Notes: generated by a model not told the origin, from the sequence alone. A stretch of 64,000 nt of DNA from Pseudomonadota bacterium (GCA_038040175.1 JBBPIT010000009.1:6931-70930); one strand, 5' to 3'; counted from the first letter of the stretch, positions 1,514 through 63,212 are shown. Program-made: numbers and translations.

Positions 1514-1556
1514 CAGGTCTTGAGTCTTGAGTCTTGAATTCAAGGTTCAAGACCTG
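1514..1556. repeat. Intergenic hairpin built from tandem heptamers (GTCTTGA x3 / TTCAAGG-TTCAAGAC) centred on GAATTC
   Basis: The sequence reads caggtcttgagtcttgagtcttgaattcaaggttcaagacctg. It lies between two minus-strand genes. Confidence 0.85.
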
Positions 1557-1708
1557 AGGTAACCCCGCTTGTTCTCTGTTTGTCTGTTTTCTTGCCAAAA
1601 CACTGAACAAATCCCCCTAATCCCCGCCTCCGGCCGGTGCGTAGGAATTTTTGTAGGCGGCTGGTTGCGTCACGATCCATCGCGCCGCGTCTGTCCCGCA
1701 TCACCCGC

Positions 1709-3868
1709 TCACCTGGCGAGCGGATCGGGCCTAAGCTGGAACTTAAAGACCCTGGGCAGGCTTTTCGTCCCGCCTTCCGAATGGAACGGTGACCGCGTCG
1801 AGTTTGTCGCCCAGAGCGCCCGGCCTTTCCACCCGGCTTTGGGATCGTCGATGCGCCCTTCCGCCCACTTCGGGAAGAAGCCCATGGGGTAGGGCACGCG
1901 CAGCGTCACGAACTTGCCGTCTACCAGCGCGAAGTACGAATCGCTGGTGTTGCCCGTCGCAATCGGCACGTTGGCGCCGAGCCCCAGCGTGTTGAACCAG
2001 TCCACCCAGACGTAGTAACTCGCCTCGGCGCTGCCGTCGTCCTGCACATCCCTGAACTGCGGTCCGGGAAACCGGTACAGCGTCCAGCCCTCGGGGCAAT
2101 GCTTGCCGGTCGCCTTCGGCCCGTTCAACGGTGCCCTGCACTTGCGACGGTCGAAGCTGGCGAGATGGCCGCTCGCAAACGACGCCCAGAAGATGCCGTT
2201 GCGGTCGATGTCGCCGCCGCGCGCCCCGTAGGCGGGCAATGGCGGCTCGTAGATTTCAGTGAGCGCCGTGTGCGTCGGATCGGATCCGGGGGCGACGCGC
2301 ACGACGTAGCTGGGGAACGGCGCCAACGAAGTTCCCCACACCGAACCGTCGGCCGGATTCACGACGACGCTATAGAGATTGACTGCGACGCGCTTGTCCT
2401 TGCCGGAGTCCAGCGGCTGGTCGGGCTCGACCCATTCGTCGCGCTTGCCGTTGCCGTTCGCGTCAAGGATGAAGGGCGTCCAGCCCTGTGACTTCATCTC
2501 GTCGCCGGTTTTCTCGAACATTTTCCGATCCAGCCAGCCGACCACGCCCGGGCCGCCGACCCCGGCCGAGGCCCACAGCGTATCGTTTGCGTCCTCGGCG
2601 AATATCACATGGTGCGTCGGGAAGCAGGTCGAGATCAGCGTCCACTGGTTCGTTGCCGGGTCGTACATCGACAGATGCCGGTTCGCGCTTTCGAGCGGAA
2701 ACACCTTCGCCGACGGATGGTCCGAGCCCTTCCTGCAATCGTCGGGGTTGTTCGGATGGCGGATGCGCGCCGCGGCCCAGACCCGTCCCTTCTCGTCCAT
2801 CATCTGGTTGTGCGTGCTGGTCTGGCTGTCCCAGATCGGATCCGGCCCCCAGTAAGGCGAGGGCGCCATCGGATCGGTGCGGTGCGAAGGCGTATTCGGA
2901 TCACGCACGGGATGCTTCACCTCCGTCGCCGTGTGCGTAAGCGGATCGAGGACCGGCCAGTAATCGGTGCTGTTCTCGGGCGCGCCGTAGAACTTCCCGT
3001 TGGTATTGACCGTGGGCTTGCGCCGATCGGTCCCGATCAAATCATGCATGTAGGCGTTAGGGCGGCTCCAGTCCCACAACGTCAGCACGAGGTTGCGCTC
3101 GATTCCCTGCGGCCGCTCAGGCTTCGCGAAGGGCAGCTCGCCGGCGGCGATCCGGTCGGTCCAGTCGGCCCACAGCCCGAGCGCCCGCCCGGTGCCGAGC
3201 CGGCCGGCCGCGGTGACCATGTTGTTCATTGCCTGTCCCGAGGCGATGCGCCGTCCCCACGCCTCGGTGGAGTTCATGTGCGCAAAATCCTTCGGAATGG
3301 TGCGCGTGCCCACGGTGCCCAGCGCGTGACACGACATGCAGCCGTTGGTCTTCACGGTGTTGAGCCAGTGGGTCTGCGTCTTCATGCCCGGCTCGATGCC
3401 GTTGCCGTCCGGACCCGTGCCGGGAAATTCGCTTTTCGCCGGAATCTTCAGCAGCGAGTACCAGTAGATCGCCGGGTAATACTCCGCCGCAGTAGCAGCG
3501 CTCGGCGCCACCACCGCGCGCAGGTCGAGGCGTTTTCCCGGTGTGGCCTGGACTTTGGGCGAATCGACCAGTCCGTAACCGCGCACCCACACGCTGTAGC
3601 TGGCCTTCGGCAGATCGGGTATGAGGTAGCGCCCCTGATCGTCGGTAACCACGATCTTGGCAAATTTGGTCGGCAGGTCTGACGTTTCCGCGATCACCCA
3701 CACGCCGGCTTCCGGCCCGTTCGCGCTCTTCACCACCCCGCCGAGATCGTTCTCGCCGATGCGGATCTCCGTACCGCCCTTCCGTGTGCCGGTCCCCGCC
3801 GCGCAGGCGGCGAGCAGCACCGCGATTCCGGCTACCGTGATGCCGCGGCGCAATCCTCCAATCGTCAT
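1709..3868 (-). CDS. Lipoprotein with carboxypeptidase-regulatory-like domain, one CxxCH heme-c motif and a large C-terminal repeat domain
   Basis: ORF 1709..3886, trimmed to the ATG at 3868, which is preceded by GAGGGAG. It has a lipobox-like LLAACAAG. GVWVIAETSDLPTKFAKIVVTDDQGRYLIPDLPKASYSVWVRGYGL resembles a CarboxypepD_reg fold. NGCMSCHALG is a CxxCH motif. Confidence 0.7.
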   Translation of the reverse strand: MTIGGLRRGITVAGIAVLLAACAAGTGTRKGGTEIRIGENDLGGVVKSANGPEAGVWVIAETSDLPTKFAKIVVTDDQGRYLIPDLPKASYSVWVRGYGLVDSPKVQATPGKRLDLRAVVAPSAATAAEYYPAIYWYSLLKIPAKSEFPGTGPDGNGIEPGMKTQTHWLNTVKTNGCMSCHALGTVGTRTIPKDFAHMNSTEAWGRRIASGQAMNNMVTAAGRLGTGRALGLWADWTDRIAAGELPFAKPERPQGIERNLVLTLWDWSRPNAYMHDLIGTDRRKPTVNTNGKFYGAPENSTDYWPVLDPLTHTATEVKHPVRDPNTPSHRTDPMAPSPYWGPDPIWDSQTSTHNQMMDEKGRVWAAARIRHPNNPDDCRKGSDHPSAKVFPLESANRHLSMYDPATNQWTLISTCFPTHHVIFAEDANDTLWASAGVGGPGVVGWLDRKMFEKTGDEMKSQGWTPFILDANGNGKRDEWVEPDQPLDSGKDKRVAVNLYSVVVNPADGSVWGTSLAPFPSYVVRVAPGSDPTHTALTEIYEPPLPAYGARGGDIDRNGIFWASFASGHLASFDRRKCRAPLNGPKATGKHCPEGWTLYRFPGPQFRDVQDDGSAEASYYVWVDWFNTLGLGANVPIATGNTSDSYFALVDGKFVTLRVPYPMGFFPKWAEGRIDDPKAGWKGRALWATNSTRSPFHSEGGTKSLPRVFKFQLRPDPLAR

Positions 3869-3985
3869 GTTTGTGCTCCCTCTCAAGGTTGTGATCGGTC
3901 GGTGGTGTCGGCGGAAATATTCCAGAACCGAAGCGCTAGAAAACTCCCCGGAGACGTTCGACGAACCCGACTTTGCCGCCGCGCG

Positions 3986-4333
3986 CTATCTCCGGAACGC
4001 GTCGCCATAGCGCTCGGGAGCAAAACCAACCAACAAATCCTTGCCGTTTTCCAGCACAGGGCGCTTGATCAGACTCGGATTCTCGCTCATCAGCCGCAAC
4101 GCCTTGGCTTCGTCGAGATTCACCTGTTGCGCCGGCGACAGCTTGCGCCAGGTAGTGCCGCGCGTGTTGAGCAGCGTTTCCCAGCCGACACGCTTTGACC
4201 AGTCTTTCAATCGGGCGAGATCGATGCCCGCCGCTTTGTAATCGTGGAAGTCGTAACGTACGCCGTGATCATCCAGCCAGGCGAACGCCTTCTTCATGGT
4301 GTCGCAGTTCCTGATTCCGTAGATAGTGGGCAA
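3986..4333 (-). CDS. ArsC/Spx/YffB-family reductase-like protein
   Basis: 115 aa, (TTG)PTIYGIRNCDTMKKAFAWLDDHGVRYDFHDYK...LIKRPVLE, the typical ArsC-family/YffB pattern. The TTG start is directly preceded by the repeat array. Confidence 0.8.
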   Translation of the reverse strand: MPTIYGIRNCDTMKKAFAWLDDHGVRYDFHDYKAAGIDLARLKDWSKRVGWETLLNTRGTTWRKLSPAQQVNLDEAKALRLMSENPSLIKRPVLENGKDLLVGFAPERYGDAFRR

Positions 4334-4334
4334 A

Positions 4335-4482
4335 GGCGTGAGGCGAGAGGCGTGAGGCGAGAGGCGTGAGGCGAGAGGCGTAAGAGCAGGGCTTAGTGGC
4401 TTACTTTCTCGTGTTTACCCTTCACCCTTCACTCATTCCCCCTTCACTGCCCTTGTCACCCTTCACTCCTTCACCCTTCACG
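4335..4482. repeat. Two-armed heptamer-repeat element: (GGCGTGAGGCGAGA)x3 plus a degenerate copy, about 30-bp spacer, then CCTTCAC-type array
   Basis: Left arm 4335-4390, right arm 4417-4482 (tttacccttcacccttcactcattcccccttcactgcccttgtcacccttcactccttcacccttcacg). It fills the whole spacer between the stop of the FAD oxidase gene and the start of the arsC-like gene. Confidence 0.9.
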
Positions 4483-4486
4483 ATTT

Positions 4487-5872
4487 TTACAGAGTAAAAA
4501 TCTTCCCCGGATTCATGATGTTTTGCGGGTCGAGGGCCTTCTTGACCTGGCGCATCACGCTGACCGCTTCGCCGTGTTCGGCGATGAGGAACTTCATCTT
4601 GCCCAGTCCGATGCCGTGCTCGCCGGTGCAGGTGCCGTCCATCGCCAGCGCGCGCATCACCAGCCGCTCGTTCATCCGCTCGGCTTCGGCGATTTCCTTC
4701 GGATCGTCGCGATTGATCAGGAATCCGAGGTGGAAGTTGCCGTCGCCGACGTGGCCGACCAGTGGCGCGGTGAGGAAGCTTTTTTTCAGGTCCTTCTTGG
4801 TCTCGAGGATGCATTCAGCGAGGCGGGAGATCGGAACGCACACGTCGGTCGCCCAGATTTCGCAGCCGGGACGCAGCGCCTTGTTGGCGTAAGTCACATC
4901 GTGGCGCGCCGTCCACAGCGCGTTACGGTCTTCCGTCTTGGTCGCCCATTTGAATTCGCCGCCGCCGTTTTCCGCGGCGATCGACTGCACCATTTCCGCC
5001 TGTTCCTTGACGCCCGCGTCGGTTCCGTGGAATTCGACGAACAGCGTGTCCTTGACCGGATAGTTCAGCTTGGAGAACTTGTTCACCGAATCCATCTGCA
5101 CGTCATCGAGCAGCTCGATGCGCGCGACCGGAATGCCGAGCTGGATGGTCTGGATCACGGTGTTGACCGCGCCTTCGATGCTGTCGAACGAGCATACGGC
5201 CGCCGCCATCGCTTCGGGAATGCCGTACAGGCGCAGCGTCACTTCGGTGATGATGCCGAGCGTGCCTTCGGAGCCGACGAACAGGCGGGTGAGGTCGTAA
5301 CCGGCGGCGGATTTGCGCGCGCGCCGCGAGGTGCGGATGATGCGGCCGTCGGCGAGCACCACGGTCAACGCCAGCACGTTCTCGCGCATGGTGCCGTAGC
5401 GAACCGCGTTGGTGCCGGAGGCGCGTGTCGCGGCCATGCCGCCCAGAGAGGCATCCGCACCCGGATCGATGGGGAAGAACAGGCCCTGGTCGCGGATGTG
5501 CGCGTTCAACTCTTTGCGGGTCACGCGTGCCTGCACGGTGACGTCGAGATCTTCCGCGCTGACCCGCAGGACCTGATTCATGTTCATCAGATCCACCACC
5601 ACGCCGCCCAGGTGAGGGATGACGTTGCCCTCGAGCGAGGTGCCGGTGCCGTAGGCCACCACCGGCGTGTTGTGCCGGGCGCATATACGGACGATCTCAG
5701 CGACTTCCTCGGTGGTATTCGGGAATACCACCGCGTCCGGCCGGTGCGGGTGATGCCAGGATTCGTCCTTGCTGTGGTGGTCGCGCACCCCGGTGCTGGT
5801 GGAAAGTCGCTCACCGAAGATGGCCTTCAGCTCGTCGATGGCGGACTGGAGCTCTATTGCGGGGAGGCTCAT
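4487..5872 (-). CDS. FAD-linked oxidase (D-lactate dehydrogenase / GlcD-like)
   Basis: 461 aa. The N-terminal FAD-binding PCMH pattern is PDAVVFPNTTEEVAEIVRICARHNTPVVAYGTGTSLEGN. The C-terminal pattern is HVGDGNFH...GTCTGEHGIGLGK. Confidence 0.85.
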   Translation of the reverse strand: MSLPAIELQSAIDELKAIFGERLSTSTGVRDHHSKDESWHHPHRPDAVVFPNTTEEVAEIVRICARHNTPVVAYGTGTSLEGNVIPHLGGVVVDLMNMNQVLRVSAEDLDVTVQARVTRKELNAHIRDQGLFFPIDPGADASLGGMAATRASGTNAVRYGTMRENVLALTVVLADGRIIRTSRRARKSAAGYDLTRLFVGSEGTLGIITEVTLRLYGIPEAMAAAVCSFDSIEGAVNTVIQTIQLGIPVARIELLDDVQMDSVNKFSKLNYPVKDTLFVEFHGTDAGVKEQAEMVQSIAAENGGGEFKWATKTEDRNALWTARHDVTYANKALRPGCEIWATDVCVPISRLAECILETKKDLKKSFLTAPLVGHVGDGNFHLGFLINRDDPKEIAEAERMNERLVMRALAMDGTCTGEHGIGLGKMKFLIAEHGEAVSVMRQVKKALDPQNIMNPGKIFTL

Positions 5873-6017
5873 TCGGATTTCCTCGGGAAGATAGGTTGCA
5901 TGTGACGGGGAAAGTCAAATCTTACCGCAAGGGCGCCTTGTCGACCCGTGTGTGCGGTGCAGGTTGCGGGTATCCCTATCATCAGCTACTTTGAGGCCCT
6001 TGGGAATCGCGAAGGGA

Positions 6018-7433
6018 ATGGCAATGCGAGCTGTGTCAGTCGGGGGGGCGGCAATCGTGCTGGTGTCCGGCTTGGCGGTGCCGGCGGCACTGGATGAGAT
6101 TCCGGTGGCGGCGCTTTCGGCCGGCAGTTTTACCGTCGCGCTCGCCGACCGTACCGCGTTCTCCGAACCGGCGCCGGTACTCGATTACCGGCAGAGAGAG
6201 AAATTCCTGCGGGGGCGGCAGCATTTCAACCAGAAATGGGTGGTTGCCCCGTCCCTCGGCGGCGATTGGGGGTTGGGCCCGACTTTCATCGCTGACCGAT
6301 GCTCGGGTTGCCACGTCGGTGGTGGGCGCGGCGACACCCCGAAGTCGGCGGACCAGCAACTGTTTTCGGTTTTGGTACGCATTTCGATCCCGGGCAAAGA
6401 TGAGCATGGGGGGCCGAAGCCGCACCCGGACTACGGCGACCAAATCCAGAACCAGGGCCTCATGGGGCAGGACCGCGACGCGACGTATCTGGGGGAACGC
6501 GTGCCGCAGGAAGCCAATCTGTATCTCGACTGGCAGGAAACGCCTGCCACGTTCGCGGACGGCGAAAAAGTCACGTTGCGCAAGCCGCGGCTGCGAGTGG
6601 AGAAGCTCAAATTTGGGCCGCTCGGCCCCGAGGTGATGTACTCATTGCGGATCGCGGTGCCGACTTTCGGACTGGGACTGCTCGAAGCGGTGAGCGAGGC
6701 TGACATTCTCGCCATTGCCGAGAGGCAAAAAGTGCAAGGCGTGAACGGGCGCCCGAATTACGTCTGGGACGCAATCGGCAAACGCGTGGCGCTGGGACGG
6801 TTCGGCTGGAAATCGAATCAGCCGTCGATCAGGCAGCAGATCGCCGCGGCGTTTCACGGCGACATCGGCGTGACCTCGCCGGTTTTCGACAGGGAGAATT
6901 GTCCGCCGGTGCAGGCAGATTGCGCATATCAGCCGCCGGGCAACCAGCCGGAACTCGTTGAGGTCAACTGGGACGAACTGGAGTTCTGGACCCGGGCGCT
7001 TGCCGTGCCGGCACGCCGGGGTGTCGATACCCCGGGTTACAAGCGCGGGGAACGGCTATTCGTCGAGGCGCAATGCGCGGTCTGCCATGTGCCGGAGATG
7101 AAGGCCGGGGTGCTGCCGGGACTGTCGCAGATCCAGGGCCAGGTTTTTCATGCCTACACCGATCTGCTTCTGCACGACATGGGCGAGGAGCTTGCCGATG
7201 GACGCCCCGACTTCAAGGCCGGACCGCGCGACTGGCGCACCCCGCCGCTGTGGGGACTCGGCTTGTCGCAGACTGTGAACGCAAGCACAGCGATGCTGCA
7301 CGACGGCCGCGCCCGCAACGCCACCGAAGCCATCCTCTGGCACGGCGGCGAAGCAGAGACCGCACGCGAGGCATTTCGAAACATGCCGAAGGCGGATCGG
7401 GAGGCGCTCCTCAAGTTTCTCTCCTCGATTTGA
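6018..7433 (+). CDS. DUF1111-type di-heme oxidoreductase (putative peroxidase/thiol oxidoreductase family)
   Basis: ORF 5952..7433, with the likely start at MAMRAVS (6018). Two CxxCH motifs are present (CSGCHVGGGRG and CAVCHVPEM). The tail RTPPLWGLG...LHDGRARNATEAILWHGGEA is characteristic of DUF1111 as I remember it. Confidence 0.75.
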   Translation: MAMRAVSVGGAAIVLVSGLAVPAALDEIPVAALSAGSFTVALADRTAFSEPAPVLDYRQREKFLRGRQHFNQKWVVAPSLGGDWGLGPTFIADRCSGCHVGGGRGDTPKSADQQLFSVLVRISIPGKDEHGGPKPHPDYGDQIQNQGLMGQDRDATYLGERVPQEANLYLDWQETPATFADGEKVTLRKPRLRVEKLKFGPLGPEVMYSLRIAVPTFGLGLLEAVSEADILAIAERQKVQGVNGRPNYVWDAIGKRVALGRFGWKSNQPSIRQQIAAAFHGDIGVTSPVFDRENCPPVQADCAYQPPGNQPELVEVNWDELEFWTRALAVPARRGVDTPGYKRGERLFVEAQCAVCHVPEMKAGVLPGLSQIQGQVFHAYTDLLLHDMGEELADGRPDFKAGPRDWRTPPLWGLGLSQTVNASTAMLHDGRARNATEAILWHGGEAETAREAFRNMPKADREALLKFLSSI

Positions 7434-7450
7434 ATGGCTGTCGGAGTGAT

Positions 7451-8035
7451 ATGCGGCTGATCACCTGTTGCGGGCGCACGCTAGGCGGTCGGGCTTGGGT
7501 GGCGATCCTTGGGTTCGGAGCGCTCGCCTGGCTGCCGTTTGAAGCGGCCGCCGCCACACCTGAGGAACTGCTCGCCCGCTACGAAAGGGAAGCGCGCGCC
7601 GAAGCGCCGGCATTTCACGGTTTTTCCGCCGAAGAAGGACGGATGTTCTATTTTCAGAAATACCCGGTGCCGATTCTTGGCGAAGTCGGCTGCGTATCCT
7701 GCCATTTGCAGGACCCTCGCCGGTCCGTCATGCGCCATCGCACGAAAATCCCCTGCCGCGCATGCCACGTCATCGACGACGCCGAGCACGTTGACCCGGT
7801 GAACGCCAAGAAACGGGAAATCAACGCGTTCGCCCCCGTAGCCAATCCGCGCAGATTCACCGATCCGAAAATAGTGGAGAAATGGTTCCAGTTGAACTGC
7901 AACTACGTGCTCAAGCGTTCCTGTACGGCCACTGAAAAGGGCAATCTTCTGGCCTGGGTACTCAGCCTGGAGCGGAGCGCCATGGACAACAAGCCGGAGT
8001 TGGGGAAAGAGTACGAGTGGTTGCTCACGGAATGA
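7451..8035 (+). CDS. Putative secreted di-heme cytochrome c (DUF1924-like)
   Basis: Internal ATG of ORF 7073..8035, giving MRLITCCGRTLGGRAWVAILGFGALAWLPFEAAAA as the signal peptide. Two CxxCH motifs are present (CVSCH, CRACH). Confidence 0.6.
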   Translation: MRLITCCGRTLGGRAWVAILGFGALAWLPFEAAAATPEELLARYEREARAEAPAFHGFSAEEGRMFYFQKYPVPILGEVGCVSCHLQDPRRSVMRHRTKIPCRACHVIDDAEHVDPVNAKKREINAFAPVANPRRFTDPKIVEKWFQLNCNYVLKRSCTATEKGNLLAWVLSLERSAMDNKPELGKEYEWLLTE

Positions 8036-8160
8036 ACGGCCTCGCGGGATTGACCGGCCGCGCTCGCGCGGGGCGCCGTCTCTGAATCGGCAGGCGGATT
8101 ACCCGGAGCGCCCATTGCGGGCGCCTGGATTGCCGCGGGCATAGCTCTGGTGCGGCGACG

Positions 8161-8188
8161 ATAAAAAAGCCGGGGACAAGCCCCGGCT
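8161..8188 (-). terminator. Rho-independent terminator after the amidohydrolase gene
   Basis: Stem AGCCGGGG/CCCCGGCT with a 5-nt loop. The plus-strand A-run ataaaaaa becomes a U-tract on the minus-strand transcript. Confidence 0.7.
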
Positions 8189-8207
8189 TGAATTGTCGGA
8201 CGAACCC

Positions 8208-9755
8208 TCAAACAGCAGGGATGCCTGTGTAGTTGCTCTTGGCGACATACCCGTAAGCGGCGTTGCTGCGCTCGCCGCCCATGGCGATGTAGTCGGCTTT
8301 GATCTGGGCGATTTGATCCTGGGTGAAGGGTTTGCCTTCCGTGATCTTCATGTCGAGCTGGTACAAGTGCGCGCAGTTCAGTCCGAAGATTTTCTGTTTG
8401 ACCTCGCTGTTCGGCCCGCCAAGGCGGGTTTTCCACTTGAACTTCTTCATGATGTCGTCCGGTATCTCGATCCGGCGCATGGCTTCGATCTGCCACTGTG
8501 GGCTGCCGTACCACACCGAGTCGGAGCCCCATACCACCCGCTCTGCCCCCATCATATTCACCAACTGGCCGAGGAACGCGGCGCAGAAGCGCGGGTTGGT
8601 GACCGCGGTGCTGGCGAACACACTGCCCAGTTCGGCGTACACGTTGTTCACGCCGAACTTATCCGGGATGCGCGCCAGGTCGGTGGCCCACTCGACATAG
8701 CCTGTATCCAGGAAGGCCTGCAGATCCTTGTCGGGCTGATCGGCCAGCCAGGGGCGCAGCGCTGCGTGGTAAATGACGAAATTCATTCCCGGCCAATCCT
8801 TGGCAGCCTTGCCCAGGTCTCGTACCGTGGCGCTTTCCCAAGTACCCGCGAAGGCCTTCTCGTAGTCGCGCGGCATCAGCCCCTTGTGGATGCAGATGGT
8901 ATTGATGCCCGACTTGATCGCCTTCTCGTAGAACGGGTACATCAGTTTTTCGTCATCCAGGCGCCATGCGTACTTGGACGGCCCGAACGGATCGCCGATG
9001 GTGTAGGACTTCCAGGAGACCGGATGTAGCGTGTCAATGGCGCGATCCACTTCGTCCATCCAGTTCGGGTACTTCGGCGTGATGATCGTGTGGCCAAGCA
9101 TACGAGTGCCGCCGGCCATCTTGTTCACGGAGCGGCAGGCGTTCTGGATCGCGTCGTTGGACAACAGCCACCAGCTCGGATCGTCGAACGGCGCGCCCGA
9201 CAGCAGCGACATCTTGGTATCGCTGTCGAGGAAAATCTCCTTCAGGTAGTTGTCCATCTTGTAGCGCGACAGGGTCAGTGGCACCGACATGATGTCGGGG
9301 TTGACCTTTGCGTTCACCGCCCACTTGGTCAGTCCGAGCAGACCTTCCTGCTTGAAGTCATCGCGTATGAAGTGGGTCTGGTCATCGAAAATGAACTGGC
9401 CGGCAAGCTGGCCGGCCCGGTATTTCGACATTTCCATGTCGGCCGCCTCAGCCTCGGAAACATCCCAGACCGGGCCGAAAACCTTGTTCATCGCCAGAAA
9501 CGCTGTCGCCATGCCGGCACTGCTTGCCAGAAACTGGCGGCGGCTGATGTTGTGGCGTTTGGCCTGAACGTCGGCCAACTCCTTGATCAGGCCCTCGACC
9601 TTCTTCTGGTCATCGGTTTGGGGCAGCGGGTTGTACTCGCCATTGGAGACGACCTGCGTTGGAACCGGCGAGCGAAATGCCACCTCGTCCGCCGGCGCGA
9701 CGAGCTTCATCTCGTCGTCGCTCATATGCACGCCAATATGTCTTTGAATTGTCAT
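8208..9755 (-). CDS. Tat-exported amidohydrolase-family (TIM-barrel metal hydrolase) protein
   Basis: 515 aa with a twin-arginine signal SRRQFLASSAGMATAFLAMN. The long C-terminal part resembles amidohydrolase_2-type proteins (ICIHKG...VIYHAA...VVWGSDSVWYGSPQ). Confidence 0.65.
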   Translation of the reverse strand: MTIQRHIGVHMSDDEMKLVAPADEVAFRSPVPTQVVSNGEYNPLPQTDDQKKVEGLIKELADVQAKRHNISRRQFLASSAGMATAFLAMNKVFGPVWDVSEAEAADMEMSKYRAGQLAGQFIFDDQTHFIRDDFKQEGLLGLTKWAVNAKVNPDIMSVPLTLSRYKMDNYLKEIFLDSDTKMSLLSGAPFDDPSWWLLSNDAIQNACRSVNKMAGGTRMLGHTIITPKYPNWMDEVDRAIDTLHPVSWKSYTIGDPFGPSKYAWRLDDEKLMYPFYEKAIKSGINTICIHKGLMPRDYEKAFAGTWESATVRDLGKAAKDWPGMNFVIYHAALRPWLADQPDKDLQAFLDTGYVEWATDLARIPDKFGVNNVYAELGSVFASTAVTNPRFCAAFLGQLVNMMGAERVVWGSDSVWYGSPQWQIEAMRRIEIPDDIMKKFKWKTRLGGPNSEVKQKIFGLNCAHLYQLDMKITEGKPFTQDQIAQIKADYIAMGGERSNAAYGYVAKSNYTGIPAV

Positions 9756-13198: not shown

Positions 13199-14440
13199 AT
13201 GGCGCATATGCCGCAACAGACCGAGGACAGGATGAATCGCCCCGAAAAGCTTCCCCGCAACGCCAGTCCGCACATCGCCTCGCGCATGGCCGGCATCGAG
13301 CCGTTCCACGTGATGGCACTCATCGCGCGGGCAAGGGAGCTGGAGGCGCAGGGGCGGAGCATCTCGAACATGGTGGTGGGTGAGCCCGATGCACCCACCC
13401 CGCCGTTGATCGCAGAGGCCGGCGTCCGCGCGATCCAGGCCGGCCGGATCGGCTATACCCAGTCGCTGGGCATCACCGAGTTGAGGGACGCGATCTCGGA
13501 GTGGTACCGCACGCGCTACGGTGTCGAAGTGCCGCGCTCTCGGATCGCGGTGACCACCGGCTCTTCGGGCGCGCTGCTGCTGACGATGGGTGCGCTTCTT
13601 TCGCCCGGAGACCGGGTGCTGATGACCGATCCCGGCTATCCGTGCAACCGGCATTTCGTGCGCGCAATGGAGGGCGATCCGGTCGGCGTCGCAGTGGATG
13701 CTTCGACCGCATACCAACTCACCGCCAAATTGGTGGAGAAGCACTGGACGCCGAAAACGGCGGCGGTGCTGATCGCTTCGCCGTCGAACCCGACCGGCAC
13801 ACTGATCGCTCACGATGAGCTCGAGCGCATTCACGCCGTGGTGCGCGCGCGTGGCGGGGTCCTGATCGTGGATGAGATCTACCATGGCCTGACGTATGGA
13901 CAGCGCGACCGCAGTGCGCTCGAGTTCGCCGATGACGTCTTCATCATCAACAGCTTTTCCAAGTATTTCGGTATGACCGGCTGGCGTCTGGGGTGGATGG
14001 TGGTGCCGCAGGAATTCATGCCGGCGGTGGACAAGCTGGCGCAGAACCTTTTCATCTCTTCCTCGGAATTGGCGCAGAAGGCGGCGCTCGCCGCATTCCA
14101 TCCCGATACCACCGCACTGCTGGAACAGCGCCGCGACGCCTTCCGCGCGCAGCGCGATTTCCTGGTGCCGGAACTGCGCAGCCTGGGCTTCGACATCCCG
14201 GTGATGCCGGAGGGTGCGTTCTACATCTATGCGAACTGCGAACGGCTCACGTCCGACAGCTATCAGTTTTGCTGGGACCTGCTGGAGAAAGCCGGCGTGG
14301 CGATCGCGCCGGGAATCGACTTCGGCGGCCATCGGGCGAAGCAGCACGTGCGTTTCTCGTATCCGAAGCCCATCCCCGTCCTGCGGGAGGGAGTGGAACG
14401 GTTGCGCAAGTATCTGGGCGAATTGACGACGCAACCGTGA
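13199..14440 (+). CDS. PLP-dependent aminotransferase, class I/II (aspartate aminotransferase-like)
   Basis: 413 aa with ISNMVVGEPDAPTP, YTQSLGITELRDAISEWY, SPSNPTGT and SFSKYFGMTGWRLGW (PLP lysine motif). The start could be a downstream Met. Confidence 0.85.
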   Translation: MAHMPQQTEDRMNRPEKLPRNASPHIASRMAGIEPFHVMALIARARELEAQGRSISNMVVGEPDAPTPPLIAEAGVRAIQAGRIGYTQSLGITELRDAISEWYRTRYGVEVPRSRIAVTTGSSGALLLTMGALLSPGDRVLMTDPGYPCNRHFVRAMEGDPVGVAVDASTAYQLTAKLVEKHWTPKTAAVLIASPSNPTGTLIAHDELERIHAVVRARGGVLIVDEIYHGLTYGQRDRSALEFADDVFIINSFSKYFGMTGWRLGWMVVPQEFMPAVDKLAQNLFISSSELAQKAALAAFHPDTTALLEQRRDAFRAQRDFLVPELRSLGFDIPVMPEGAFYIYANCERLTSDSYQFCWDLLEKAGVAIAPGIDFGGHRAKQHVRFSYPKPIPVLREGVERLRKYLGELTTQP

Positions 14441-14643
14441 AGGGGGAATGCGTGAAGGGTGAAGGGTAAAGGCGTAAAGCCGCTCGAAAATAGCGAGCAT
14501 CCCGAGGATTTTTCAAGGATACGTTATTGCTCATGCATTGCTTTCATCTGATCGGAGACTCACTCACCATGCTTTTGCATGGCCGATCTCTCCACTTGAC
14601 CACCGTCTTGCACCCTTCACCCTTCACCCTTCACTCATTCACG
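14436..14643. repeat. Two-armed heptamer-repeat element (GTGAAGG arm ... CCTTCAC arm)
   Basis: Left arm cgtgaagggggaatgcgtgaagggtgaagggtaaaggcgtaaag (14436-14479) contains the TGA stop of the aminotransferase. Right arm cacccttcacccttcacccttcactcattcacg (14611-14643) ends 5 nt before the ATG at 14649. Confidence 0.9.
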
Positions 14644-16454: not shown

Positions 16455-16469
16455 CTTCAATAATTTCTT

Positions 16470-16651: not shown

Positions 16652-16674
16652 GAGCGCGTTTCAAGGTTCCTTCA

Positions 16675-19000: not shown

Positions 19001-19035
19001 GGCCGGCCGCGTGCAAGATGGAGCGACCGTAAGAA

Positions 19036-38134: not shown

Positions 38135-38170
38135 TCAATTCGAATTTCCCGACTTGGCAAAAAATGACGG

Positions 38171-49211: not shown

Positions 49212-49214
49212 GGC

Positions 49215-49383
49215 GGTGAACGGTAAATGGTGAATGGTGAACGGTAAGCGGTAAACGGCAAAAGCAAGAACAAATACCCGTGCACTGAATCGCCTTTCAC
49301 CTTTCACCCTTCACCCTTCACCCTTCACCCTTCACCCTTCACCTTTCACCCTTCACCCTTCACCCTTCACCCTTCACCCTTCA
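49215..49383. repeat. Two-armed heptamer-repeat element: 7 x GGTRAAN, 29-bp spacer, 13 x CC(C/T)TTCA
   Basis: Hand-parsed. The left arm 49215-49263 reads ggtgaac ggtaaat ggtgaat ggtgaac ggtaagc ggtaaac ggcaaaa. The right arm 49293-49383 has 13 contiguous heptamers (3 cctttca, 10 cccttca). It begins 3 nt after the CoA-binding gene stop and ends 10 nt before the metY ATG. Confidence 0.95.
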
Positions 49384-49393
49384 CGGCATTCAC

Positions 49394-50680: not shown

Positions 50681-50699
50681 CAGTCCTTAAATCGAAGGG

Positions 50700-50899
50700 C
50701 TCACCACGAAGGCACGAAGAACACGAAGAAATGCAAAAAGAGATCGCATTCAGATCTAGCATTCTCTGTGAATATTTGTGTTACTCGTATTTCGCCGGCG
50801 ATGTTTCTTTGTTGGCTTCGGAGTGACCGGGTGGCTGGCTCGGAGCAAAAACACTTCTCGCATCGTCTTTCTTCGTGTTCTTCGTGCCTTCGTGGTGAG
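50700..50899. repeat. 200-bp MITE-like element with perfect 32-bp terminal inverted repeats built of CACGAAG units
   Basis: ctcaccacgaaggcacgaagaacacgaagaaa (50700-50731) is the exact reverse complement of tttcttcgtgttcttcgtgccttcgtggtgag (50868-50899). The interior is AT-richer. Confidence 0.9.
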
Positions 50900-50956
50900 A
50901 CTTTCGGTTCTCCGTTGCGCCTTTGCGTTGAGGTTTATGGGTTCTGAGGGGCACGC

Positions 50957-52661: not shown

Positions 52662-53543
52662 TCAGACGGCGTTTCCTTGAAGAAAGGCCTCGATGGCGGC
52701 GGCGAATCGTTTGGGTTGGTCGTGGTGCATCATGTGGCCGGCGTCGGCGATGGATTCTTCATGCAGCGAGCGATAACAGGAGCGGTAGCGGTCCAGCATC
52801 GACTTGTCGCCCTTCATCCACTTCATCATCCATTCGCCGTCTCCCCACAGCCAGAGCACCGGCGCGGTGATGCGCCGCCAGCAGGCCATCGCCTCCTCGA
52901 TGCGGTAGAGCACCGGATTCACCATTTTGTGGCAGGGATCGGCGCGCAGACGGATGTTGCCGTCGGGCATCTGCTCGGCCCAGTGCGGCGCGAGGAATGC
53001 GGCGCGTTCGTCGGTGATGCGCGGATTGTTGGTCTTGAGCCGGTGAATGACTTCTGCGAACGACGAGTAGGGGCGCAACGTCGGCGGCTTGCGGCATTCG
53101 TCCAGCCACTGGGCGTAGCGTTCCGGTGCCTTTTCCGGCTTGGTCGGCGGCAGACCGAAGCCTTCCGCCAGCACCAGCTTCCCGACGCGTTCCGGGCGGA
53201 TGCCCGCGTAAAGGTTGGCGACATTCCCGCCCATGCTGTGACCGACCAGACTTGCCGGGACTTCCGGCGAGAAATGCGACAGCAGCGCGTCGAGGTCGGC
53301 GATGTAATCCGGAAACCAGTAACTGTCGTTGGTCCACTCCGACAATCCGAACCCGCGCCAGTCCGGCGCGATCACGAACCAATCGTGCTTGAGCGCATCC
53401 ACTGCGAATTGGAACGACGCCGACACGTCCATCCAGCCGTGCAGAAAGAAAATTTTGGTTGCATCCGGATTGCCCCAGGTGCGCACGTGGTAGCGCAGGC
53501 CGCGGATGTCGAGAAACTGCGATTGGCTGACTTTCATAGTCAA
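52662..53543 (-). CDS. Alpha/beta hydrolase
   Basis: 293 aa with IFFLHGWMDVSASF and LVGHSMGGNVA (GxSxG). The TTG at 53543 or the ATG at 53537 could be the start. Confidence 0.8.
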   Translation of the reverse strand: MTMKVSQSQFLDIRGLRYHVRTWGNPDATKIFFLHGWMDVSASFQFAVDALKHDWFVIAPDWRGFGLSEWTNDSYWFPDYIADLDALLSHFSPEVPASLVGHSMGGNVANLYAGIRPERVGKLVLAEGFGLPPTKPEKAPERYAQWLDECRKPPTLRPYSSFAEVIHRLKTNNPRITDERAAFLAPHWAEQMPDGNIRLRADPCHKMVNPVLYRIEEAMACWRRITAPVLWLWGDGEWMMKWMKGDKSMLDRYRSCYRSLHEESIADAGHMMHHDQPKRFAAAIEAFLQGNAV

Positions 53544-53549
53544 ACACTT

Positions 53550-53697
53550 ACCGCAGAGGACGCGGAGTACGCTGAGGAAAAACTGAATGCGAGATGCAAA
53601 CCTGGGGAGTAAAACACGAAATTGTCAGAGTCTCTTTGTGACATTTTCCGATTCTTTGAGAAATTGATTTGCGATACTCCTCCGCGTCCTCTGCGGT
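53550..53697. repeat. 148-bp element with 18-bp perfect terminal inverted repeats
   Basis: accgcagaggacgcggag (53550-53567) pairs with ctccgcgtcctctgcggt (53680-53697). The interior is AT-richer. It fills the spacer between two minus-strand genes. Confidence 0.9.
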
Positions 53698-53709
53698 GAG
53701 CGCTTATCG

Positions 53710-54621
53710 CTACTCCTGGCCGGTCATGGGTTCGACTTCTTCGTGCCGGCGGATGCTGAGGTAGGACAGGATCGCCAGCGCGACGCCGATCAGCAGCATG
53801 CCGATGAGCTCCGACTTGCCCGGTTCTTCGCCGAGCTGCAGCCACGATGCGACGATCGCAATTAGCGGGATTCCCAGCGAAGACAGGCTGGTGGTGCCCG
53901 CCGGCAGCCGATGCAGCACATACAGCCACGTCAGCCAGCCGATGCCGGTCGCGAGTACGCCGTTGAACACCGCGGCAAAGATGAAAGTGCCGGTCCAGTT
54001 GACCGGCTCGCGGTCGAAGATCAGTTGCGCGATCAGGATCGGAATCAGCCCCACCAGCATCTGCCAGAAGGTGAACGACAGCGCGTCCACCGGGGCGCGG
54101 TTATGCAGGCGCTTCGCATACACCACGCCGATGGCCCAGCACATGCCGGCCAGCACCGCCAGGGTCTTGCTGAACATCGAAGTGTGCATTTCCCAGGGTT
54201 CGAGCACGAAGACCAGACCTATCGCCGCCAGCACCACCGCTACCCACTGCAAACCGCGGATGCGCTCGTGCAGCACCGGCCAGGCAAACACCAACACCCA
54301 GAAAGGCATGGTGAAAACCAGCACCGAGGTCTTTCCGGGGCCGCCTTCTGACAGCGCCCAGGTGTTGAGGATGATGAAAACGAAAGTCTGGATCAGCCCG
54401 ATGAGTATTAGCGCCGGCCAGTGCTGTGGCCTGAGCGAGGATCGTGTCCACAGCAGACCGATGAGCAGCGTCAGTACGCCAAGCTCCACGCGAATCGCAG
54501 CGAAGTCCAGCGGACTGGCGTAAAACAGGCCAAGCTTGGAAGTGATCCAGCTGTAACCCCACAGGATCACTAGCAGGATCATCGCGATCACCGCCCTGCG
54601 GGTTTCGCGTGCGCCGGTCAT
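53710..54621 (-). CDS. EamA-family (DMT) transporter
   Basis: 303 aa with 10 hydrophobic segments and duplicated EamA halves. Confidence 0.85.
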   Translation of the reverse strand: MTGARETRRAVIAMILLVILWGYSWITSKLGLFYASPLDFAAIRVELGVLTLLIGLLWTRSSLRPQHWPALILIGLIQTFVFIILNTWALSEGGPGKTSVLVFTMPFWVLVFAWPVLHERIRGLQWVAVVLAAIGLVFVLEPWEMHTSMFSKTLAVLAGMCWAIGVVYAKRLHNRAPVDALSFTFWQMLVGLIPILIAQLIFDREPVNWTGTFIFAAVFNGVLATGIGWLTWLYVLHRLPAGTTSLSSLGIPLIAIVASWLQLGEEPGKSELIGMLLIGVALAILSYLSIRRHEEVEPMTGQE

Positions 54622-59232: not shown

Positions 59233-59241
59233 GAGATGCGT

Positions 59242-61890
59242 TTACTTTACCCGCATGCCCGGCTGCGCGCCATCGTCGGGCGAGAGCAGGAAAATGCCCG
59301 GCCCGTCGCCGCTGGCGGCCAGTACCATGCCCTGGGATTCCCCGAAGCGCATCTTGCGCGGCTGCAGGTTGGCGACCATCACCGTAAGCCGTCCGACCAG
59401 CTTCGCCGGGTCATATGCCGACTTGATGCCGGCGAACACCTGGCGGGTTTCGTTGCCGAGATCGAGCTGCAGTTTGAGCAGCTTGTCGGCGCCTTCCACG
59501 TGCTCGGCACTGACGATGCGCGCGACGCGCAGCTCGACTTTATTGAAATCATCGATAGTGATAAGCCCCTCTCCCTCGGGGAGAGGGGTCTGGGGTGAGG
59601 GAGACGTCGGGGTGGAGGTCATTTTGTTCACCATGTTCCATATCGACTCGAGCACCGAGTCGGTTTGCGAGAGCACATCGTTATTCCAGAACCGCAACAC
59701 TTCGATTCGAAGTGCCGCGAGCGCTTGTGTTCGGGAATCGTCGTACGAGCGTGCCGTTTGATGTTGGCCACCATCCAGTTCGATGGCGAGTTTCAGCTCG
59801 TGGCTGTAGAAGTCGAGGACGTATCGATGTCCACTGAATTCCACGGGATGTTGCCGGCGAAACTTCGCGCCGGCAAGCCTTCGATCGCGCAGCAAAAACC
59901 AGACTAGTTGCTCGGCGTCTGTTTGGACGGCGCGCAACTTGCGCGCGAATTCCAGCAGATCAGGTGGGACGGGCGGTTTTTTCTTGAAAAGGCTTTTTTT
60001 CCCCTCACCCCCCGCTCCCTCACCCCCCCGCCCCTCTCCCGGAGGTAGAGGGGAGCTGGCCGGTTGCAGGCTTTCCTTGTTGGCTTCGACCAGCGCGGTG
60101 ATCTGTTTGGGGTCGATCCTCATCATCAAATGCGAATATTCCTGAACGCGATGATTCTCCAAGAGTCTGGACGCGTCCTTCCATTCAAGATCCCCGTCCC
60201 GAATAAACTGCTCGGCTGAGGATGCAAGTGTTGGCAGTACTGGCTTCAAATAAATGGTAAGCAGCCGAAAGAGATTGATAGTGACGGTGCAGACTTCGTG
60301 AAGATCCGAAGTTTTCTGTGCGTCTTTTGCAAGTTCCCAGGGTCGATTCAGATCAAAATACTTATTTGCGAGATCGGCTAAGAACATAACTTCCCTTATC
60401 GCACGGCCGAACTCGCGCAACTCATATAGTGTGGCTATCCGTGCCGCATCAACCATTGCGACAGACAATAATCTCGCGGGGTCTATTGGTAACTCGCCTT
60501 CCGAGACTAACCTCAGAAACGCATCACGCTCGAATTCGTCAACCGACTCATCTCCAGGACTAAAGTCAAACAACCCCATCGTCCTGATCGAGTTTGAGTA
60601 CGCAGTCACTTCGGCTGAGTAGTGCAGCGAACCAATCTCGTTGTTGAACTTGCTTCTTAGAAAGGATGCAGCTCTGCTTGCGATGTTGACGTACTTGCCG
60701 ATCAGATCGCTGTTTACCCGCGCGACGAAGTCCTCGAGGTTGAGGTCGATGTCCTCCATGCTCGCGTTGAGCTTCGCCGCGTAGTAGTAGCGCAGCCACT
60801 CGGGATTCAGCCCCTGCTTGAGGTAGCTCTCGGCGGTGATGAAGGTGCCGCGGGACTTGGACATCTTCTGTCCGTCCACCGTGAGGAAGCCGTGGGCGAA
60901 CACCTTGGTCGGCGTGCGGTAGCCTGCGAATTCCAGCATTGCCGGCCAGAACAGGGCATGGAAATAGAGGATGTCCTTGCCGATGAAGTGGACCATCTCG
61001 GTATTGCCGCCCGGGCGCAGGAAGGCGTCCCTGTCGATGGTCTTGCCCGCCGCTTTCTGTTTGGCGACGTAGTTGCCGAAGCTGCCGAAGTATCCCACCG
61101 GCGCATCCAGCCAGACATAAAAGAACTTCTGGTTGTTGGTGCCCGGGATCGGAAAGCCGAAGTAGGGGGCGTCGCGGGAAATGTCCCAGTCGGCCAGCTT
61201 GTTATCGCCAGGCTCGCCCAGCCACTCTTTCATCTTGTTCGCCGCTTCCGGCTGGAGGCGGTCGCCGGTCTGGGTGAAGCGGCGCAGGAAATCCTCGCAT
61301 AGTTTGTCGGAAAGCCTGAAGAAATGGTGCTCGGAGGCCTTGCGTTCCGGCCTGGCGCCTGAAACCGCCGAGTAAGGATTGATGAGGTCGGTGGGCGAAT
61401 ATGTGGTGCCACAGACTTCGCAAGAGTCGCCGTACTGGTCCTTCGAGTGGCAGTTCGGGCACTCGCCCTTGATGTATCGGTCCGGCAGGAACATCTGCTT
61501 GACCGGGTCGTAGAACTGCTCGACCGACCGTCTGGCGATCAGGTTCTTCTTGTCCAGCTGGCGGTAGATGTCCTCGCAGAAAGCCTGGTTCTCCGGGGAA
61601 TTCGTGGTGTAGTAGTTGTCGAAGGCCACATGGAAGCCGGCGAAGTCGCGGGTGTGCTCGCCGTACACGCGGGCGATCAGTTGCTCCGGGGCGATGCCTT
61701 CCTTGTCGGCGCGCAGCATGATCGGCGTGCCGTGGGTGTCGTCGGCGCAGACGTAATAGACCTCAGTGTCGGCTTGCATTCTCTGGAAGCGCACCCAGAT
61801 ATCGGTCTGGATGTATTCCACGAGGTGGCCGAGGTGGATGCTGCCGTTGGCGTACGGCAGCGCCGAGGTGACGAGGATCCTGCGCGACAT
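59242..61890 (-). CDS. metG: Methionine--tRNA ligase carrying an in-frame DUF559 insertion (882 aa)
   Basis: [28 protein letters not shown] contains the HIGH motif. The Zn knuckle is [25 protein letters not shown] is present. The anticodon-binding domain contains [21 protein letters not shown]. The C-terminal Trbp111-like domain runs [17 protein letters not shown]...[13 protein letters not shown]. There are 166 extra codons between the last two domains. Confidence 0.95.
59563..60060 (-). mobile_element. 498-bp cassette bounded by terminal inverted repeats, encoding a DUF559 (Vsr-like endonuclease fold) domain, inserted in frame in metG
   Basis: In the sense (minus-strand) orientation, the 5' end is ccctctacctccgggagagggg-cggg-ggggtgagggag-cggggggtgagggg. 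The 3' end is ctccctcacccc-aga-cccctctccccgagggagagggg. That gives imperfect inverted repeats of about 25 nt, each with a self-complementary hairpin. The interior encodes [63 protein letters not shown]...[13 protein letters not shown]. Calling it mobile is inference. Confidence 0.7.
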
Positions 61891-62000
61891 TTCGGGGAGA
61901 CGCGGAAAAGCCCGGATTCTATCAAATGGACCCCGAGAAAGCCCTTTACGGGCCGAGAATTAAGCTTAAAATTCGCCCCTTAAATTCCAGGGCAGCAGAC

Positions 62001-63089
62001 GTGGCAATCACCGAAGAGCAGGTCAGATCAGCCTTGCAGGAACTCACCGATCCGGTGACCGGGAAGGACTACGTCTCCGGCAAGGAAGCCCGCAACATCA
62101 AGGTCGAGGGCAACGACGTCTCTCTCGACATCCTGCTCGGCTACCCGGCCAAAAGCGTGATCGACGTCGTCCGGCGAGATGTTATTGGCAAGCTCAAGAC
62201 CATCCCCGGCGTGGGGAATGTCAGCGCCAACGTCCAGGTCAAGATCATCGCCCACGCTGTGCGGCCGGGCGTGAAGCTGATGCCCGGCGTCAAGAACGTG
62301 ATCGCCGTGGCGTCCGGCAAAGGCGGGGTGGGCAAATCCACCACTGCGGTAAACCTGGCGCTGGCGCTCGCCGCCGAAGGCGCCCAGGTCGGGTTGCTGG
62401 ACGCCGACATCTACGGCCCCTCCCAGCAGATGATGATGGGGCTGTCCGGCCGGCCGGAGTCCGCTGACGGAAAGACCATCGAGCCGAAGGTGAAATACGG
62501 CGTGCAGGCGATGTCGATCGGATTGCTGATCGACGTGGACACGCCGATGGTCTGGCGTGGTCCGATGGTGACCCAGGCGCTGGAACAGTTGCTGCGAGAC
62601 ACCCAGTGGAAGGATCTGGACTATATGGTGGTGGACCTGCCTCCCGGGACCGGCGACATTCAGCTCACGCTGTCGCAGAAGGTCCCGGTTACCGGTGCCG
62701 TAATCGTCACCACGCCGCAGGACATTGCACTGATCGATGCCCGCAAAGGCCTCAAGATGTTCGAGAAGGTAGGCGTGCCGATCCTGGGACTGGTGGAGAA
62801 CATGAGCGTCCACGTCTGCTCCAAGTGCGGACACGAGGAGCACATTTTCGGCGAGGGCGGGGCGGCGGCCATGAGCAAGGACTACGGCGTGGAGGTACTT
62901 GGCTCGCTGCCGCTCGACATCAAAATCCGCGAACAGGCGGACTCGGGCAAGCCGACGGTGGTCGCCGAACCGGACAGCCGCTCAGCGCAGATCTACAAGG
63001 AAATCGCCCGCAAGGTGGCGGCCAGGATCTCGGAACTGTCGAAGGACCACAGCGCAGCGTTTCCGAAGATCGTTATCCAGAATACGTGA
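62001..63089 (+). CDS. apbC: Fe-S cluster carrier ATPase (Mrp/ApbC/NBP35 family)
   Basis: GTG start inside ORF 61926..63089. N-terminal MIP18-like domain ITEEQVRSALQELTDPVTGKDYV. Deviant Walker A motif VASGKGGVGKSTTAVNLA. CxxC motif SVHVCSKCGHEEHIFG. Confidence 0.9.
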   Translation: MAITEEQVRSALQELTDPVTGKDYVSGKEARNIKVEGNDVSLDILLGYPAKSVIDVVRRDVIGKLKTIPGVGNVSANVQVKIIAHAVRPGVKLMPGVKNVIAVASGKGGVGKSTTAVNLALALAAEGAQVGLLDADIYGPSQQMMMGLSGRPESADGKTIEPKVKYGVQAMSIGLLIDVDTPMVWRGPMVTQALEQLLRDTQWKDLDYMVVDLPPGTGDIQLTLSQKVPVTGAVIVTTPQDIALIDARKGLKMFEKVGVPILGLVENMSVHVCSKCGHEEHIFGEGGAAAMSKDYGVEVLGSLPLDIKIREQADSGKPTVVAEPDSRSAQIYKEIARKVAARISELSKDHSAAFPKIVIQNT

Positions 63090-63212
63090 GGCGAGAGACG
63101 TGAGGCGAGCGGCGAGAGCAAGATACTCAGTGCGGTCAGCGTCTGCAGCTCGCGCGCGCCTCGTGCTGCGTTTTTCACCCTTCACCCCTCACTTCTCACC
63201 CCTCACGAGCGA
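63085..63212. repeat. Two-armed heptamer-repeat element (CGTGAGGCGAGAGA-type arm ... CYTCAC-type arm)
   Basis: The left arm cgtgaggcgagagacgtgaggcgagcggcgagag includes the apbC TGA stop and shares its unit with the 4335 locus. The right arm tttttcacccttcacccctcacttctcacccctcacgagc ends just before the dcd ATG. Confidence 0.9.

Follow-up and report, generated by a model that had tools for sequence, protein, structure and literature searches.

The closest described counterpart of the elements analysed here is the family of paired (GGGAATC)n arrays of Xanthomonas. These arrays are intergenic, and each genome has 70-75 pairs of them in inverted, convergent orientation, in which the G-rich arm comes first; they lie mostly between co-directional open reading frames (ORFs) and very close to an ORF, the G-rich strand is found downstream on the coding strand, and divergent spacers are under-represented. 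They are transcribed and differ between X. campestris and X. citri in both length and sequence; no function has been found for them (Rehm et al. 2015, PMC4692102). Here, we analysed a 64,000-nucleotide stretch from a Pseudomonadota bacterium (GCA_038040175.1 JBBPIT010000009.1:6931-70930; the whole of this stretch is hereafter called the window), in which ten loci carry tandem arrays of short units, mostly as inverted pairs able to form hairpins. These elements are best read as being of the same kind as the Xanthomonas pairs, i.e., of a class already described: in both, tandem units lie between genes and close to an ORF, the purine- or G-rich arm comes first, divergent spacers hold few copies, and the arrays vary between relatives. 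However, the lineage here, as indicated by MetY homologues, is a soil-type Burkholderiales/Betaproteobacteria metagenome-assembled genome (MAG), several unrelated unit families, including 8-10-nt units without G-runs, occur in one genome, and the arms reach 42 nt around spacers of 35-145 nt. The covariation of the arms across relatives, which is documented here, goes beyond the Xanthomonas description.

Other intergenic repeats are also comparable. As far as the survey of Mrázek et al. (2007) is summarised by MacGregor (2015, PMC4679880), heptamers are the commonest unit among long simple-sequence repeats (5-11 nt), which are abundant in large free-living genomes, with Burkholderia among the richest, and for which polymerase slippage has been proposed; the survey in that summary concerns single arrays, whereas the arrays here form inverted pairs. 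The TAACTGA repeats of Beggiatoaceae lie beside starts that lack a Shine-Dalgarno (SD) sequence, and a translational role has been suggested for them but not shown (PMC4679880). Like these repeats, the cyanobacterial short tandemly repeated repetitive (STRR) sequences and the Nostoc heptamers (PMC4679880; bioRxiv 10.1101/2022.06.06.494920), the elements described here are intergenic, spread across phyla and often situated at SD-less starts. Unlike them, they are paired; the other three occur nearly always as single arrays of direct repeats (170 sets include one indirect repeat), have one dominant unit per genome, and lie upstream of starts rather than after stops. The elements also resemble repetitive extragenic palindromic (REP) sequences, bacterial interspersed mosaic elements (BIMEs) and REP doublets forming hairpins (REPINs) in that they are extragenic, form stem-loops and are placed at the 3' ends of genes or in co-directional spacers; REPs are transcribed, as the elements here probably are. 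REPs are conserved palindromic units of 20-40 nt, present in many copies and mobilised by REP-associated tyrosine transposases (RAYTs), whereas the arms here are tandem arrays of locus-specific sequence.

With moderate confidence, we regard the elements as hairpin-forming pairs of long simple-sequence repeats that renew themselves at the DNA level, by slippage and arm-to-arm copying, and that are tolerated beside gene 3' ends. Heptamer-type repeats occupy a sizeable share of the intergenic DNA of many large bacterial genomes. To this, the present analysis adds a purine-first chirality that is strict and a polarity at stop codons, both extending over many phyla, many units and viral contigs, the concerted evolution of both arms, the occupation by an element of the place of a relative's gene (DSBA), and the failure under simple controls of readings based on orientation with transcription and on SD/anti-SD pairing. 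The chirality, which is strand-symmetric and extends across phyla, and the covariation of the arms are clear regularities open to testing, and if the polarity reflects a transcription- or translation-linked constraint, it would provide a handle on the content permitted in bacterial 3' untranslated sequence.

An earlier note on this DNA had proposed a family of ten intergenic hairpin elements with arms of tandem 7-bp repeats. The family is real and has one architecture: the sequences read as claimed, Tandem Repeats Finder detects arrays with periods of 7-10 at every locus, built head to tail from units in the 5-11-nt range, and a Pfam-anchored map, in which flanking genes were identified by Pfam scans, places all ten loci between genes. 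Inverted pairs, i.e., a purine-rich arm followed by a unique spacer and a pyrimidine-rich arm with units of 7-10 nt, are present at eight of the ten loci, and the six longest inverted repeats of the window (no more than 300 nt apart) include loci 50690, 16467, 14436, 53542 and 1513. At up to two mismatches, GTGAAGGGTGAAGG has 28 matches in the window (0.32 expected from dinucleotide shuffles), all of which, except 2462-2475 (two mismatches), lie inside seven of the loci; approximately one third of the spacers of at least 60 nt contain a heptamer-type repeat. The elements and their flanking genes are as follows.

1513-1557: short hairpin of GTCTTGA units with arms at 1513-1530 and 1540-1557, folding as a plain 20-bp stem with a 5-nt loop; between the stop of gene 1709-3886 (minus strand) and a PQQ dehydrogenase gene (minus strand) that starts at 1483.
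4334-4481: two-armed element, (AGGCGTGAGGCGAG)3.4 at 4334-4381, spacer at 4382-4416, (ACCCTTC)~9 at 4417-4481; between an FAD-oxidase gene, 4487-5872 (minus strand), and an ArsC-family gene, 3986-4333 (minus strand).
14436-14643: two-armed element, GTGAAGG-type arm at 14436-14472, spacer of ~138 nt, CACCCTT arm at 14611-14643 (inverted repeat 14436-14467/14612-14643); between an aminotransferase gene, whose TGA at 14438-14440 lies within the arm, and an α/β-hydrolase gene, whose ATG at 14649 lies 5 nt past the element.
16467-16654: two-armed element, AACACGAAGG arm at 16467-16513, spacer, TTCCTTCGTG arm at 16624-16654 (inverted repeat 16467-16497/16624-16654); between a Sel1-repeat gene (stop 16454) and an ATG at 16675.
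19033-19072 (plus strand): single purine-rich arm of GTGAAGG-like units, beginning 33 nt past the stop on the sense strand of an epoxide-hydrolase-like gene, 17846-19000 (plus strand); convergent spacer, with CofC at 19098-19772 (minus strand) on the other side and a canonical terminator-like hairpin at 19103-19156, 3' of the arm.
41257-41292 (plus strand): single purine-rich arm, GTGAGACG twice and then GTGAAGA/GTGAAGG; between an ORF at 40550-41257, the last base of whose TAG is the array start, and an ATG at 41319 with GAGGAG in front.
49212-49384: two-armed element, degenerate GGTGAAC/GGTAAAT arm at 49214-49258, 37-nt spacer, (TTCACCC)12.7 at 49296-49384; between a CoA-binding-protein gene (stop 49211) and metY (ATG 49394).
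50690-50909: two-armed element, 42-nt arms at 50690-50731 and 50868-50909 with 93% complementarity and a 136-nt interior, units CACGAAG(G/AA), ends CTCACC...GGTGAG; between metY (stop 50680) and an MFS transporter gene (ATG 50957).
53542-53705: two-armed element, arms at 53542-53567 and 53680-53705, CGCAGAGGA/CGCGGAG units; between EamA, 53710-54621 (minus strand), and a hydrolase gene with its ATG at 53537 (minus strand).
63085-63206: two-armed element, GTGAGGCGAGAG-type arm at 63085-63114, spacer, (TCACCCC)4.6 at 63175-63206; between mrp/apbC, whose TGA at 63087-63089 lies in the first unit, and dcd (ATG 63216).

The capacity to form hairpins was borne out by folding, which gave long stems with z-scores of -4 to -7; the exceptions are loci 4335 (z-score -3.2) and 63085 (z-score -1.9), where the arms are only loosely complementary. 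Locus 1514-1556 is a plain hairpin; at 49215, the arms are unequal (approximately 13 units on the right, six degenerate units on the left). As the note had stated, stop codons lie in or at the arrays, two TGA codons being contained in the first unit and a TAG ending at 41257. Its statement that all copies lie between co-directional genes applies to nine of the ten, but not to 19036, which is convergent with the minus-strand CofC.

The purine-then-pyrimidine order, observed on both strands, had been taken as evidence that the elements are oriented with transcription. This argument is a tautology, because the reverse complement of such an inverted repeat keeps the same order; loci 4335 and 53550, on the minus strand, therefore carry no information about transcription. 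Accordingly, the orientation claim does not hold for the two-armed copies, although arrays beside stop codons do show polarity (56 vs. 6, see below). What is not automatic is that the order is purine-first and never pyrimidine-first, and that single arms are free to take either orientation with respect to the adjacent gene.

Orthologous sites were compared in relatives. A metagenome scan with MetY yielded 80 loci, and 21 relatives at 90-96% MetY identity were examined; L001 (GCA_035275265.1) is a close relative with 96% MetY identity. Two-armed elements are present at a given spacer in nearly all of the 21 relatives whose contig reaches that spacer, and some relatives have none at a particular site. 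In L001, two CACCCTT units are found in a CoA-binding/metY spacer of only 26 bp, with CACCCTTCACCCTTCAC directly before the ATG; no element is present in the metY/MFS spacer (49 bp), and the spacer past the Sel1 gene holds one GGAACACGACGG only. Arrays at the same sites thus differ in length, unit and presence. At the metY sites, the units differ among relatives, with both arms changing together and complementarity being kept. Downstream of metY, the arm pairs are CACGAAG/CTTCGTG, CGCAGAGGA/TCCTCTGCG, CACAGAGG/CCTCTGTG, CGCAAAG/CTTTGCG and CACGGAGGA/TCCTCCGTG; upstream of it, they are GGTGAAC/GTTCACC, GTGAATATC/GATATTCAC and GTGACGG/CAATCAC. In L135, a heterogeneous 41-nt arm is mirrored at 41 of 41 positions with zero mismatches, which argues for copying of a whole arm rather than for independent slippage in each arm. 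Slippage, in turn, is indicated by the right arm of the window at 49296-49384, which has 13 units, compared with 1-2 in relatives that share the same interior. Interiors match at orthologous positions only, in the nearest relatives and at 82-87% identity (73-80% at metY third codon positions in the same comparisons); in more distant relatives, the interiors are unrelated even where the arms are alike, and some relatives (L122, L119 and L128) combine the same arms with an unrelated interior. Unit sequence, copy number and interior turn over faster than synonymous sites.

The site between EamA and the hydrolase gene illustrates how an element can stand where a relative has a gene. Relatives that carry DSBA (L001 13429-14061, L120 and L125) have no element in its place, and L134 has an element in the neighbouring DSBA-hydrolase spacer. 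In four genomes that lack DSBA (window 53538-53709, L122, L124 and L132), an element lies at the DSBA position, with CGCAGAGGA arms in three of them and GTGAAGG arms in one.

Two further observations were made in the comparison with L001. Synteny with this relative (4844-8904) breaks right after the epoxide-hydrolase-like gene, at the single-arm array 19033-19072, and returns at the redoxin gene (48143), approximately 29 kb of other genes (~19000-48140), including CofC and CofD, lying in between. Just downstream of the 16470 element, the ORF starting MLHITNGDIAVE (window 16675-16860) is 61 aa long vs. 332 aa for its homologue in L001 (1905-2903), which points to a putative frameshift, a pseudogene or an assembly error.

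If the stems were maintained as RNA helices, G·U mismatches should exceed A·C mismatches on the sense strand. No such excess was found in the stems: the G·U:A·C ratio is 25:20 for the metY sites, 21:44 for co-directional pairs across phyla (L003-L118) and 4:13 for the window (50 vs. 77 overall), and there is thus no sign of selection on the sense RNA. The folding energies of the two strands are about equal, with three elements favouring the sense strand and four the antisense strand. The earlier claim that these are RNA structures rather than DNA repeats is thus not borne out, and the evidence leans the opposite way. The surplus of A·C over G·U on the gene-sense strand, in the window and across phyla, means that, relative to perfect complementarity, the purine arm tends towards A and the pyrimidine arm towards C.

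Similar structures are widespread. (CCTTCAC)3 was found in more than 116 stretches of species-representative genomes from Proteobacteria, Bacteroidota, Planctomycetota, Verrucomicrobiota, Gemmatimonadota, Acidobacteriota, Chloroflexota, Armatimonadota, Firmicutes, Actinomycetota and one archaeal MAG. When a partner arm was counted at a local alignment score of at least 12, 24 of the 91 cross-phylum loci had it on the 5' side of (CCTTCAC)n and no locus on the 3' side; at the same loci, pairs of other units were purine-first in 21 cases, pyrimidine-first in three and neutral in three, and in viral contigs, with control heptamers included, 13 pairs were purine-first vs. two. The resolved pairs lie in 21 co-directional, eight convergent and one divergent spacers, compared with 148, 35 and 43 background spacers, respectively (chi-square ~6.5 with 2 degrees of freedom, computed from the spacer counts); divergent spacers thus hold one of 30 resolved pairs vs. 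19% of the background. The eight convergent pairs also show that the elements are not specifically intercistronic, as had been proposed. Among arrays ending no more than 30 nt past a stop codon, 56 are purine-rich and six pyrimidine-rich on the sense strand of the gene, whereas no polarity is seen among arrays located up to 30 nt ahead of a start codon (23 vs. 19). The polarity at stop codons, together with a partner arm that can be placed only away from coding sequence, would account for the chirality of the pairs.

The purine/pyrimidine asymmetry is strong, and 186 distinct purine-rich units occur among 341 arrays. In viral contigs, CCTTCAC is present in 27 stretches vs. 11, 1 and 12 for three composition-matched heptamers. 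CCTTCAC was considered as a unique universal unit and rejected as such: it is commoner than the controls, yet many other units build the same structures. Some viral contigs contain 3-4 separate (CCTTCAC)n arrays, for example IMGVR_UViG_3300028895_000633 (L203, L204, L225) and 3300017992_000721 (L208, L218). Individual loci can be composite; for example, in L030 (a Clostridiales MAG), the left side has (CAAGTAA)n and (GTGAAAG)n, which the right side mirrors with (CCTTCAC/CTTTCAC)n and (TTGTTAC)n, in L115, GTGAAGA/CCTTCAC arms surround a GTCATCCTGAGCG...CGCTCAGGATGAC palindrome, and in L023, differing heptamer arrays adjoin each other.

The way in which such elements might arise and persist can be outlined as follows. 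Replication slippage would cause the arrays to grow and shrink, and intrastrand template switching would copy one arm onto the other, keeping complementarity at the DNA level and not by selection for RNA pairing; mirrored heterogeneity, concerted unit changes and the lack of a wobble bias would all follow from the latter. Selection would mainly filter the tolerated sites, i.e., gene 3' ends and short co-directional spacers, with promoters being avoided, and would impose the purine-in-sense rule beside stop codons. The fixed chirality would then result from arrays that are purine-rich in the sense strand at stops and from a partner arm laid only on the non-coding side. The elements are probably transcribed, judging from position alone, because they lie between genes without room for a promoter or terminator. 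In RNA form, they would be long stems whose base is separated by 0-12 nt from the preceding stop and by 3-20 nt from the start that follows. Any phenotypic effect would most likely be REP-like, a 3'-proximal stem altering mRNA decay or ribosome release, and is regarded as a by-product rather than the cause of the elements' existence.

Several points weigh against this interpretation. A purely mutational model does not cover the purine-in-sense polarity at stops, which implies selection or a directional process, and function could be the reason why most relatives keep elements at the same sites. Template switching is itself suggested by sequence patterns. The G·U and A·C counts are small and partly non-independent, as repeated units are counted several times, and the cross-phylum gene calls come from a home-made ORF scorer based on amino-acid composition, which is imperfect and makes errors.

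It is a tentative possibility that the elements are REP-like functional RNA stem-loops, acting as a 3' exonuclease barrier, as a site of processing by RNase III or as a terminator/attenuator that works in both directions without a U-tract. The purine-first order would then allow the hairpin to be completed while the hybrid is a weak one of pyrimidine RNA and purine DNA, as at intrinsic terminators. Such a role would fit the location at gene 3' ends, with enrichment in convergent and depletion in divergent spacers, as for terminators and REPs, and the strand-symmetric chirality, which is reminiscent of bidirectional terminators with their A-tract/hairpin/T-tract layout. It would also fit the strong fold z-scores of -4 to -7 and the position of the stem base, which in all seven long elements is no more than 15 nt from the stop codon, a distance at which REPs near the stop codon can stall ribosomes in E. 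coli (PMC12306157); moreover, the Xanthomonas arrays are transcribed (PMC4692102). However, the sense strand has no G·U excess, folding energy has no strand preference, the arm lengths are unequal and drifting, and the element is absent in close relatives. Neither a U-tract nor a terminator-like match was found inside the 14436, 16470, 49215 and 50700 elements (two regions scanned; the other elements were not scanned), and no model of Rfam 15 matched anywhere in the window at its gathering score. In addition, the next genes start 3-20 nt past the stem, and no sense-strand sigma-70-like site was found inside the elements in the two regions scanned; efficient termination would silence these genes.

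An intrinsic terminator in the usual sense (a short GC-rich stem, a 3-8-nt loop and a U-tract) was also considered, and none of the four scanned elements has this form. Canonical terminator-like hairpins are found elsewhere, at 19103-19156 and 38102-38143, with the common core GAAGCCCCGC...GCGGGGCTT; thus, ordinary intrinsic terminators coexist with the arrays in this genome.

In a broader version, purine-first paired arrays would be selected, strand-symmetric 3'-end elements shared across phyla and with viral contigs, whose function depends on chirality and in which unit turnover represents tuning rather than drift. We consider this unlikely. One possibility within it is a bidirectional terminator or insulator that lacks a U-tract and exploits the weak hybrid of pyrimidine RNA and purine DNA; another is a stop-proximal device for ribosome release or re-initiation.

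Another explanation, which appears very unlikely, is that the arrays act through non-B DNA or bound proteins, either as G-quadruplexes formed by GGGTGAA units (G3N4, like GGGAATC) or as multimeric sites for a DNA- or RNA-binding protein. By sequence, the GGGTGAA family has one G3 tract per 7 nt, and (GGGTGAA)n with at least four units fits the G3N1-7 quadruplex motif, a property measured for the Xanthomonas repeats (PMC4692102); the abundance of CCTTCAC over the matched heptamers in viral contigs (27 vs. 11, 1 and 12) could be read in the same way. However, the same architecture and polarity are found in units without G-runs (CACGAAGG, CGCAGAGGA, GTGAATATC and GTCTTGA), the quadruplex motif is absent from CACGAAGG, CGCAGAGGA, GGTGAAC and GTCTTGA, and 186 units in 341 arrays are incompatible with a single sequence-specific binder.

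The proposal that the elements are translational devices, in which the stem joins a stop to the next start so that translation is coupled or re-initiated, or the arms serve as mimics, the purine arm of the SD sequence and the pyrimidine arm of the anti-SD tail of 16S rRNA, carries a very low probability. It draws on the stems being flush with both stop and start, on metY, which has no SD sequence in any relative and whose ATG is always adjoined by a TTCAC-type pyrimidine arm, and on the TAACTGA heptamer arrays just 5' of SD-less starts in Beggiatoaceae (PMC4679880). However, flushness is expected of an element that has come to fill a 26-49-nt ancestral spacer. The lack of an SD sequence, which the earlier note had recorded at several starts, is not distinctive: SD-less starts are the majority in this lineage, only ~7 of 19 called gene starts in L001 having an SD-like word. 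The suggested SD/anti-SD mimicry is not supported either, because SD-like 4-mers in the purine-rich units are at the level expected from shuffled composition (28 vs. 29.3; 14 vs. 11.3). Moreover, arrays close to starts are unpolarised (23 vs. 19), the MFS gene retains its own SD-like word 3' of the element in several relatives, and elements are present between convergent genes as well. Backup stop codons were considered as another function of the units and found unconvincing, stops being present in 18 of 27 sense units near stop codons vs. 14.5 from shuffled units.

A mobile element of the MITE (miniature inverted-repeat transposable element) or REPIN type, with the arms as terminal inverted repeats for a transposase, is most improbable: despite long terminal inverted repeats (42 nt, 50690/50868), presence/absence polymorphism among relatives and identical arms with different interiors at one site, the interiors are unalike among the window loci and, across 1.4 Mb of related loci, alike only at orthologous positions (blastn), no target-site duplication or direct repeat was found around 50690-50909, arm sequences vary among the loci of one genome, and arm copy number changes by slippage. 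Comparison of the ten loci by blastn gave matches of repeat units only, with no conserved multi-copy core and target-site duplications of the MITE type; similarly, the arms differ, and no conserved palindromic unit of the REP/REPIN type recurs at many loci.

Two observations elsewhere in the window concern other features. ARAGORN reports a 97-nt tRNA-Arg(TCG) at 29789-29885, for which there is no Rfam tRNA match at the gathering score or at E-values up to 1; most likely, the call is spurious or marks a degenerate tRNA. The methionyl-tRNA synthetase ORF at 59242-61890 (minus strand; 882 aa) contains, in frame, a DUF559 domain (Vsr-like endonuclease; residues 646-754) between the anticodon-binding and C-terminal tRNA-binding domains. 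A (CCCCTCACCCCCCCG)2.7 repeat (60001-60040) and an A/T-rich tract adjoin this domain, which, judging from sequence, may be a domain insertion or the footprint of a mobile element within an essential gene.

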